From Candidatus Methanomethylicia archaeon (GTDB lineage: Archaea > Thermoproteota > Methanomethylicia > Nezhaarchaeales > B40-G2): a stretch of DNA of 64,000 nucleotides. The DNA is taken from positions 13,578-77,577 of the forward strand of contig JAPDJI010000025.1 in NCBI GenBank assembly GCA_029259155.1, read 5' to 3'. Positions 33,644 to 34,818 of this stretch are shown here, piece after piece; position 1 is the stretch's first letter; every line of letters starts with the position of its first letter. The notes under the pieces are model-generated. The model saw only the letters and a list, made by a program, of their open reading frames with translations. It did not search any database and was not told where the DNA came from. The translations under genes and the position numbers were made by a program.

Positions 33644-33708
33644 CTTACACTCCTCGCCTGAAGTTTAATACGAGCTCTTCCCCTTTTATGCTAGGGGGGG
33701 TTCTAAAC

Positions 33709-34818
33709 TTGAAGTTTAGAGCTGACGCACGCTTACTTAAGAGCCCTTCAGTTAAGGAAGCCTTGCTTTATGAACAGTTGAGTGGAGGTAAAGTTAGATG
33801 TAATACTTGTGCTAGGAGATGTGTAATACCTATCGGGTTTAGAGGTTTTTGTAGGACGAGAGTGAATGTGAATGGGAAGCTCTACACCATAGTTTATGGA
33901 GATTTAAATGCCGTGGAGTCTAGACCAATAGAAAGCCTAAGGCCTTTAGGCCTAGGCCTATAAATAAAGCCTTTCTTTCACTTCTGGCCAGGCTCCACGG
34001 CCTTAACCTTCTCCACTTGGTCCTGTAATTTATACTGTTTGTGGTGTCAGAACTGGCACCTCAGCAAGGAAGAGCCTAACCCCTATCAACCAAACTATGT
34101 GTCTCCTGAAAGGCTCATATTTATGGCTAAGAGGGCTGGCGATGAAGGCCTCTGCATCTCCTTCACTGAGCCCTTAATGCTCTTCGAGTATAGCTTGGAG
34201 GTCTTTAAGTTAGCTAGGCAGCAAGGCCTCTACAACACCTACGTGAGTAACGGCTACCTTACCTTGGAAGCTTTACGAGAACTCAAGAAGGCTGGCTTAG
34301 ATGCCATAAAGATAGATGTTAAAGGAGACCGCGAAGTGTATAGACGTTTCTGTGCAGCCCCAAGCGATGAACCTGTATGGAGTACAGCTAGAGAAGCTAA
34401 GAGACTCGGGCTCCACGTAGAAATCGTTAATTTAATGGTTACAGGCGTAAATGACCAAGAGGAGCAGGTAAGGGGGTTGGTTAGGAGACATTTAAAGGAG
34501 CTGGGGGCTTACACCCCCCTCCACTTCACTAGGTATTACCCTGCATTCAAGTTTAATGCTCCTCCAACAAGCGTATCGAAGCTTGAAGCTGCTTATAAAG
34601 TGGCTAAGGAAGAAGGTCTACTCTATGTATATTTAGGCAACGTTCCTGGCCATCGTTATGAGAACACCTACTGCCATGAATGCGGACAGCTAATCATTAG
34701 GCGGGAAGGTTTCAAGGTATTGGAATGTAGATTGGTTAAGGATAACCGTTGTCCCAGCTGTGGAGCAGCTATCCCCATAGTGGGAAGGTATGTCTCAAAG
34801 CCCTGGCGCTTCCTTTAA
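33709..34818 (+). CDS. AmmeMemoRadiSam-type radical SAM enzyme; predicted join(33709..33933,33964..34818), 359 aa after removal of a 30-nt intron
   Basis: N-terminal CNTCARRC...GFCRTR; one frame throughout; removing 33934-33963 gives ESRPIE-IKPFFHFWPGS...SCNLYCLWCQN; C-terminal YLGNVPG...TYCHECG...CPSCG; TTG start after a G-run SD (alternative ATG 33688). Confidence 0.85.
33934..33963 (+). other. Predicted 30-nt bulge-helix-bulge mRNA intron
   Basis: Central helix AUAG(33928-31)/CUAU(33958-61); AAA at 33932-34 and 33962-64; 9-bp intron stem 33935-57; in-frame TAA. Confidence 0.82.

Follow-up and report, generated by a model that had tools for sequence, protein, structure and literature searches.

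How often do archaeal protein genes depend on the tRNA-splicing machinery? The closest described system is the cbf5 pre-mRNA intron of Crenarchaeota, for which Watanabe 2002 and Yoshinari 2006 are reportedly the sources. By 2009 it had been found only in Desulfurococcales and Sulfolobales, according to passages of one survey (Yokobori 2009, PMC2738675). A second case is the 5' untranslated region (UTR) intron of HVO_1309 in Haloferax volcanii—about 46 nt, with a canonical bulge-helix-bulge (BHB) motif and a homodimeric tRNA splicing endonuclease (EndA)—which passages of two papers describe as shown by circular RNA sequencing and in vitro cleavage (PMC7714728, PMC10485636). Passages of the 2020 Haloferax study name cbf5 as the sole other mRNA BHB intron reported by then (PMC7714728); those of a 2023 review count two spliced archaeal genes and expect more (PMC10485636), and those of a 2025 structural paper cite the cbf5 papers only (PMC12397907). 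Within the covered passages of open-access papers and preprints, no archaeal coding sequence other than cbf5 is reported with a BHB intron, and HVO_1309 is the only other mRNA case. Here we describe a 30-nt insert in an AmmeMemoRadiSam-type radical SAM gene, found in a 64,000-nt stretch (hereafter the window; GenBank GCA_029259155.1, contig JAPDJI010000025.1) of a Candidatus Methanomethylicia archaeon of the order Nezhaarchaeales. In our judgment the insert, at window positions 33934-33963, is very likely an mRNA intron of the relaxed HBh' type, cut by EndA and ligated by RtcB.

The window is part of contig C7 of the source genome (G000), an assembly of 1.55 Mb in 47 contigs that is 94% complete. 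Two open reading frames (ORFs) on its plus strand, 33688-33963 (91 aa) and 34039-34818 (259 aa), share one frame, as 3 divides both 33687 and 34038. Translation read through them gives ...ESRPIE, then SLRPLGLGL* (ten codons to TAA), then IKPFFHFWPGS...SCNLYCLWCQNW. On the NCBIfam model TIGR04337 (AmmeMemoRadiSam system radical SAM enzyme), the N piece covers profile positions 4-59 and the C piece 60-336; the pieces abut at 59/60, and the insert is therefore an exact 10-codon interruption. Scored singly, the halves reach 25.8 and 196.9 bits, with a curated whole-protein cut-off of 220; the uninterrupted orthologue at locus L130, which shares 66% identity over exon 2, reaches 235.4 bits. Exon 1 would occupy 33688-33933 (82 codons ending ...ESRPIE, with the profile match at residues 28-83 of the N piece), from a putative start at ATG 33688, the first start listed in the open frame. 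Exon 2 would occupy 33964-34818 (284 codons plus stop, starting IKPFFHFWPGS), and it holds no start codon upstream of TTG 34039. The C-x3-C-x2-C cluster motif lies at 34024-34047, and the TTG-started downstream ORF begins inside it and retains the last Cys alone; the first-pass annotation, a model's reading of the letters without database searches, was thus right that this ORF lacks two of the three cluster cysteines. The predicted intron, whose in-frame TAA occupies 33961-33963, is single in the window (one match at up to three mismatches; 0 of 100 shuffles gave any).

What structure would the transcript form? The central helix has four base pairs, with AUAG on the exon side (33928-33931) and CUAU on the intron side (33958-33961), and it is flanked by a 5' bulge AAA (33932-33934) and a 3' bulge AAA (33962-33964). 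Inside it, the minimum-energy fold includes a stem-loop, h' (33935-33957), in which 33935-33939 pair with 33953-33957 and 33941-33944 with 33949-33952, with A33940 bulged and a UUUA loop. On the exon side there is one lone pair, A33927-U33965 (alignment columns 22/61); the next pair outward would be C-A. The BHB rule, a cut after the second base of each bulge, predicts cuts at 33933/33934 and 33963/33964. Because both bulges are AAA, the mature sequence would be unchanged if both cuts moved together one base either way or two upstream. Two 3-nt bulges on opposite strands of a 4-bp helix occur in all five variants of the insert introduced below, with AUAG and CUAU invariant, both bulges ARA and the lone pair A-U throughout. 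A canonical hBHBh' motif has flanking helices on both sides; here the inner helix has 9 bp and the exon-side one a single pair in all five variants, and for that reason the motif is relaxed HBh' rather than canonical. The shared frame, helix, bulges, stem and one-pair A-U closure that the first-pass annotation had placed at these positions all hold in the sequence.

How does this insert compare with known systems? Like the cbf5 intron, it is a short BHB-type element inside a coding sequence, of a kind in which the motif is often relaxed and which is linked to a hetero-oligomeric EndA, and its removal would be required for an active enzyme. Unlike that intron, it sits in a radical SAM gene and not in a pseudouridine synthase gene, in phase 0 between codons and not inside the catalytic Asp codon, and in a Nezhaarchaeales-related host, outside the hosts of the 2009 survey. 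With gene and position both different, it does not fall into a cbf5-type family of common origin, and its origin would be independent. As a putative mRNA substrate of the tRNA splicing endonuclease it resembles the HVO_1309 intron; that one lies in an untranslated leader, whereas the radical SAM insert breaks the reading frame and is known from sequence alone. The 4-bp helix, 3-nt bulges, one weak flanking helix, size and presumed enzymes are shared with crenarchaeal noncanonical tRNA introns as passages of two papers describe them (PMC2724299, PMC12397907), yet the radical SAM insert lies in an mRNA, where no tRNA body helps recognition. Protein genes are also interrupted by group I introns, group II introns and inteins, all of which are removed, but 30 nt is far too small for a ribozyme and there is no Rfam match, and an intein cannot hold a stop codon or shift the frame. 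Across the window (1-64000) no Rfam family reached its gathering score, and hence neither tRNA nor rRNA nor a known small RNA was detected; within 33700-34200 no family matched at E values up to 1. In the source genome the insert matches only itself. We rejected a repeated or tRNA-derived element, because blastn-short searches with four introns gave just 12-18-nt genome matches at E of at least 0.1.

Is the interruption shared by relatives? We searched the exon 2 protein against 41 genomes of the class (G-numbers denote genomes of relatives, and L-numbers fetched loci). The best matches in all four species genomes of the family that includes the source genome (f1; G000-G003) are open frames of only 284-286 aa, and those in 24 other genomes are open frames of 341-478 aa. 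In the DNA of all four f1 genomes an insert follows CCAATAGAR and precedes ATAAAGCC. A survey of the insert site in metagenome contigs and species genomes yielded 150 fetched loci, 144 with the flanking motif and 6 without a motif match; among the 144, 9 carry an insert (5 distinct sequences) and 135 are uninterrupted at the site. Metagenome contig L049 supplies a fifth variant at the same codon, completing a set of five with the four f1 genomes, and the G001 version recurs identically in four separate loci (L003, L048, L092, and L128). The inserts are 30 nt long in G000 and G001, 29 nt in G002, and 31 nt in G003 and L049; three of the five shift the frame, because their lengths are 29, 31 and 31 nt. 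Cuts by the BHB rule rejoin CCA-ATA-GAR to ATA-AAG in frame in all five variants, and only these cuts return all five to frame.

The five sequences also differ in a manner expected of a maintained RNA structure. In a MAFFT alignment of these intron carriers, with 70 cells scored for pairing, nothing changes in the central helix, in either bulge or in the lone outer pair, and 92.9% of cells are paired, as compared with 12-41% (maximum 41.4%) when partners are slid by one to three columns. In the outer intron stem (helix 3), three of the five pairs change on both sides (C-G to U-A; U-A to C-G or G-C; A-U to G-C) with 100% of cells still paired. Overall, four pairs (eight cells) change on both sides, a count reached by 0 of 500 shuffles. 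Folds of four of the five variants have z-scores of -2.3 to -3.9 relative to shuffles, and the G002 version, at minimum energy, folds precisely into helix, 3-nt bulge and stem. Covarying inserts at the same codon of orthologues, which the first-pass annotation had proposed as a check, are thus present in all five distinct sequences of the family at 29-31 nt, and this comparison supports its view of a real mRNA intron in a gene other than cbf5.

Both exons evolve as parts of a protein under constraint. For exon 1 the ratio of nonsynonymous to synonymous divergence (dN/dS) is 0.09-0.22, computed over the last 61-62 codons for four of six pairs (two are saturated in dS, and L049 is omitted because its contig breaks off). 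Exon 2 gives 0.06-0.17 across the seven of ten pairs that are not saturated. The relaxed selection, with dN/dS near 1, that the first-pass annotation would have counted against an intron is not seen. Throughout, dS exceeds 1.2 or is saturated, and neither exon holds further stops or shifts. All five carriers agree in the exon codons that contribute to the helix, despite saturation at synonymous sites elsewhere; at the 77 distinct intronless sites the same codons vary (CCA in 17, the first ATA in 41 and the second ATA in 29). The predicted spliced peptide aligns without a gap across the junction to its uninterrupted counterparts in G008 (71% identical over 70 aa, E of 1e-35) and G016 (47% identical, E of 1e-17).

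As to the gene family itself, the function of AmmeMemoRadiSam-type radical SAM enzymes is not established. Two uninterrupted paralogues, 44-45% identical, lie at C5:65335-66177 and C15:2555-3376 of the source genome in open frames of 362 and 397 aa, so that one of three radical SAM copies bears the intron. AMMECR1 (C1:117847-118392) and Memo (C2:17806-18624) are encoded as well, and neither adjoins the radical SAM gene.

Does the organism encode suitable enzymes? The source genome has two EndA paralogues, on contigs C1 and C6, and an RtcB gene. The catalytic EndA (183 aa) corresponds to the C-terminal half of fused-type models, the catalytic one; the second, in an ORF of ~209 aa, matches the N-terminal half of those models and, weakly, beta-subunit models. 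The catalytic paralogue aligns end to end with the solved chains 3p1z_B, 3ajv_B and 2zyz_B (E of 3e-53 to 1e-45). In the loop segment D34-A46 it is 3 residues shorter than 2zyz_B and ungapped to 3p1z_B. This segment of the P. aerophilum EndA is named the Crenarchaea-specific loop, and its deletion abolishes activity, according to passages of PMC2724299. The alignments place the enzyme as a predicted two-subunit EndA with a crenarchaeal-type loop region, the type that accepts relaxed motifs, which fits the pairing of a relaxed exon-side helix with a crenarchaeal-type EndA anticipated by the first-pass annotation. ARAGORN predicts an intron in 13 of 41 tRNAs of this genome, some of the calls being doubtful.

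How would the insert be removed? In the transcript, exon AUAG would pair with intron CUAU, leaving a 3-nt bulge on each strand and the 9-bp intron hairpin on the inner side. The two-subunit EndA would cut in both bulges, and RtcB would then join the exons and probably circularise the 30-mer. Published circular RNA sequencing disfavours short circles (PMC7714728). The predicted junction is ...CCAAUAGAA joined to AUAAAGCC..., and the mature mRNA (...PIE/IKP...) would yield a full-length enzyme of ~366 residues with all three cluster cysteines. The excision of exactly 33934-33963, restoring ...PIE/IKP..., had been foreseen by the first-pass annotation from the same rule.

Several points weigh against this interpretation. 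The exon side has a lone A-U pair, which makes the motif noncanonical and removal reliant on an EndA of broad specificity. The hairpin of the source genome is no more stable than its dinucleotide shuffles (z of -0.55 and -1.09), and 21,239 loose BHB-like motifs join two open frames in that genome, which makes the motif alone weak evidence. With ordinary z-scores and so many loose motifs, the G000 sequence by itself proves little; significance comes from the relatives. There, 46 of 500 shuffles attained one of the five covariation measures and 79 attained another, and the shuffle control overstates significance because only five related sequences are compared. Pairing in the innermost helix (helix 4) falls to 75% in the MAFFT alignment, since the stems of G002 and G003, 9 bp long and unbroken, are set in a different register. 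Every genome compared is metagenome-assembled, and we infer cleavage, ligation and translation of the spliced form from DNA comparison only. What we observe directly is the motif at one exact position, conserved and covarying, within exons under purifying selection and in a genome that holds the enzyme genes.

The same data bear on other explanations. The insert could be a small palindromic insertion in the DNA that always stays in place, leaving a pseudogene or a truncated 91-aa product; it does hold an in-frame TAA, gene callers would split the gene, and the two uninterrupted paralogues might compensate. We consider this highly improbable, since the interruption is retained in all five diverged lineages at saturated dS with exons open and dN/dS of 0.06-0.22, the stem changes are compensatory while helix and bulges stay fixed, and no similar element exists elsewhere in the source genome. 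Two ORFs do exist, and they could represent a split gene whose two polypeptides (82-91 aa and ~260-284 aa), each with its own translation, combine to form the enzyme. Exon 2, however, offers no start before TTG 34039, which follows two of the three cluster cysteines, and a split gene would leave the conserved helix and bulges without a role and the 29-31-nt spacer variation without a reason, so we give this reading hardly any credence.

Ribosomes might alternatively hop over the hairpin, a translational bypass like that of phage T4 gene 60. A stable hairpin with a stop codon inside a coding sequence and ATA codons on both sides would suit that mechanism. The only matched pair of take-off and landing codons, however, is ATA to ATA, and this hop would delete the Glu-Ile of ...PIEIKP... 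that is kept in the 77 distinct intronless sites; the locus thus lacks matched codons that spare the conserved protein. Moreover, no stop follows the take-off codon, and conservation falls on precisely the features of a BHB motif, all of which makes bypass extremely improbable. An assembly or sequencing artefact could be suspected in a metagenome-assembled genome of 47 contigs and 94% completeness. Inserts of differing sequence, however, occupy the same site in four species genomes and one further metagenome contig, with the G001 version in four loci; because independent assemblies hold different insert sequences, the chance of an artefact is practically negligible.

How widespread are such introns in this lineage? 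The distribution of the interruption among relatives indicates that the radical SAM intron would have arisen in the ancestor of family f1, and the comparisons below place it as one of several putative mRNA introns in that lineage. A genome-wide BHB scan for other split genes had been among the checks proposed at first pass, and cbf5, the genes for ribosomal protein uS5 and elongation factor 2 (aEF-2), and a second radical SAM gene prove to be interrupted as well. No report of a BHB intron in radical SAM, uS5 or EF-2 genes, or in Nezhaarchaeota, was found in open-access papers and bioRxiv preprints, in agreement with the first-pass annotation, which knew of none for the radical SAM family. Passages of the Caldiarchaeum genome paper (PMC3082918) and of a 2026 Asgard tRNA-intron preprint likewise contain no protein-gene introns.

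The cbf5 gene is split in the source genome and in all five relatives tested (G001-G004 and G007), at the same profile position and across three families of the order. The predicted intron (23 nt, minus strand; L034:2262-2284 = G000:C2:28850-28872; inserts of 19-23 nt across the relatives) has a canonical hBHBh' motif, with outer helix GGGA/UCCU, central helix CCCU:GGGG, and bulges AGA and UUA. By the rule, the boundary separates the first letter of the catalytic Asp codon from the second, which is the published cbf5 intron position in passages of Yokobori 2009 (PMC2738675).

In the uS5 gene, a BHB scan with broken frames found a frame-shifting insert of 28 nt (plus strand; L270:1002-1029 = G000:C13:32002-32029) whose flanking halves match NF003125 at 6-66 and 67-207. 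Across G000-G003 and G007 the helix ACGG:CCGU is constant, the stems covary, and lengths range from 22 to 34 nt. The gene is split in all four f1 genomes and in 5 of 10 genomes of family f3; it is unsplit in the f2 genome and in each of the 25 genomes with a hit from other families. The other five f3 genomes (G006, G009, G010, G011, and G013) each give a single hit ~45 nt longer with internal stops, which suggests in-frame versions of the same intron. The uS5 motif expression had no match in the fetched loci of G006 and G010 or of the split-type G008 and G012.

The aEF-2 gene, on the minus strand of the same contig, holds a frame-shifting insert of 32 nt (L270:3951-3982 = G000:C13:34951-34982), found in a homology-first screen with ORFs of G016; its halves match TIGR00490 at 4-64 and 66-719. 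All four f1 genomes carry the insert, with covarying stems and lengths of 32, 32, 29 and 29 nt, and the uninterrupted aEF-2 of G004 encodes exactly the predicted junction ...EIEQ/LRQM.... In G029, a genome of another family, aEF-2 (C38:6452-8598) is split at profile positions 93/100, with pieces that overlap by 10 nt; either a frameshift or a distinct intron may be the cause.

Another radical SAM gene, unrelated to the first, carries a candidate BHB insert of 23 nt (plus strand; L340:1515-1537 = G000:C3:38302-38324) just upstream of its C-x3-C-x2-C motif, recovered in a screen with G008. It has a nearly canonical motif, with helix GCGG:CCGC and a 6-bp stem, and its junction peptide is 67% identical, ungapped, to the G008 orthologue. 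This insert seems confined to the source genome, because the orthologues in G001-G003 have longer open frames. By family, then, cbf5 is split in all six genomes tested and all three families, uS5 in two of the three, aEF-2 and the AmmeMemoRadiSam-type gene in one, and the C3 gene in one genus. From these distributions it appears likely that the lineage keeps a small set of protein-gene introns spliced by EndA and RtcB and gained at different depths of the tree.

How complete is this set? Structure-only scans for BHB motifs joining open frames returned 12,548, 1,067 and 21,239 candidates and were useless without homology, and a stricter stem filter, which left 54, dropped the AmmeMemoRadiSam-type insert itself, because its outer helix is 1 bp. 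Homology-first screens compared the source genome with ORFs of G016, a distant comparator, and with G008 (1.20 of ~1.49 Mb). Of the 21,239 loose candidates, cbf5, aEF-2, uS5 and the AmmeMemoRadiSam-type insert gave junction hits over the full span against G016 at E of 1e-17 or better; aEF-2, the same insert and the C3 radical SAM gene did so against G008 at 1e-34 or better. The next-best hits, at 1e-11 and 1e-16, are weak or partial, the 1e-16 hit proved false when inspected, and all junction hits weaker than about 1e-16 are partial. The count of BHB introns in protein genes of the source genome is a minimum, because one comparator was distant and the other partial.

Bathyarchaeia offer a further case in this enzyme family. 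In three of their loci (L105, L110, and L150) a stop falls inside the C-x3-C-x2-C motif of an AmmeMemoRadiSam-type gene whose halves match TIGR04337 at 4-83 and 86-330. The insert there is 30 nt long (L150:1577-1606, also in L105 and L110) and forms a canonical BHB motif in which ACAU/GUGU is the outer helix and GCCC:GGGU the central one, the bulges are AUA and AAG, and the stem has 10 bp with a single mismatch; its excision would restore ...CPWCQNW. The three loci are nearly identical and so show no covariation. The position of the insert at another codon suggests an independent intron and a phenomenon that is wider still.

If confirmed, these introns would add new host genes for BHB introns, including those for a ribosomal protein and elongation factor 2, and one genome could hold at least four or five of them. 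Their gains, forming a dated series, would allow the entry of introns into protein genes to be studied where no spliceosome exists. By mistaking essential genes of these lineages for split genes or pseudogenes, annotation pipelines would under-call them and distort completeness and metabolic inferences for uncultured archaea. Essential translation genes would depend on the tRNA-splicing machinery, and archaeal mRNA intron gain would be an ongoing process, not a single cbf5 oddity.

The screens also returned candidates in the source genome that we rejected. The candidate C1:133707 sits in an intact open frame; C6:82996 joins a binding protein to the permease that follows it; C8:33973, C8:29968 and C8:8090 join unrelated neighboring genes; and C8:6231-6314 and C11:33600-33834 join adjacent paralogous ABC ATPase genes. 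At C3:2049-2089 excision would remove conserved glycosyltransferase residues (judged by eye), and a frameshift is more likely. In three further genes (C2:59898, C2:107065-107075, and C20:1066-1078) one base is missing, and each gene matches a single protein of a relative across two frames; these -1 frameshifts, which have no BHB motif, may be assembly errors, pseudogenes or programmed shifts.

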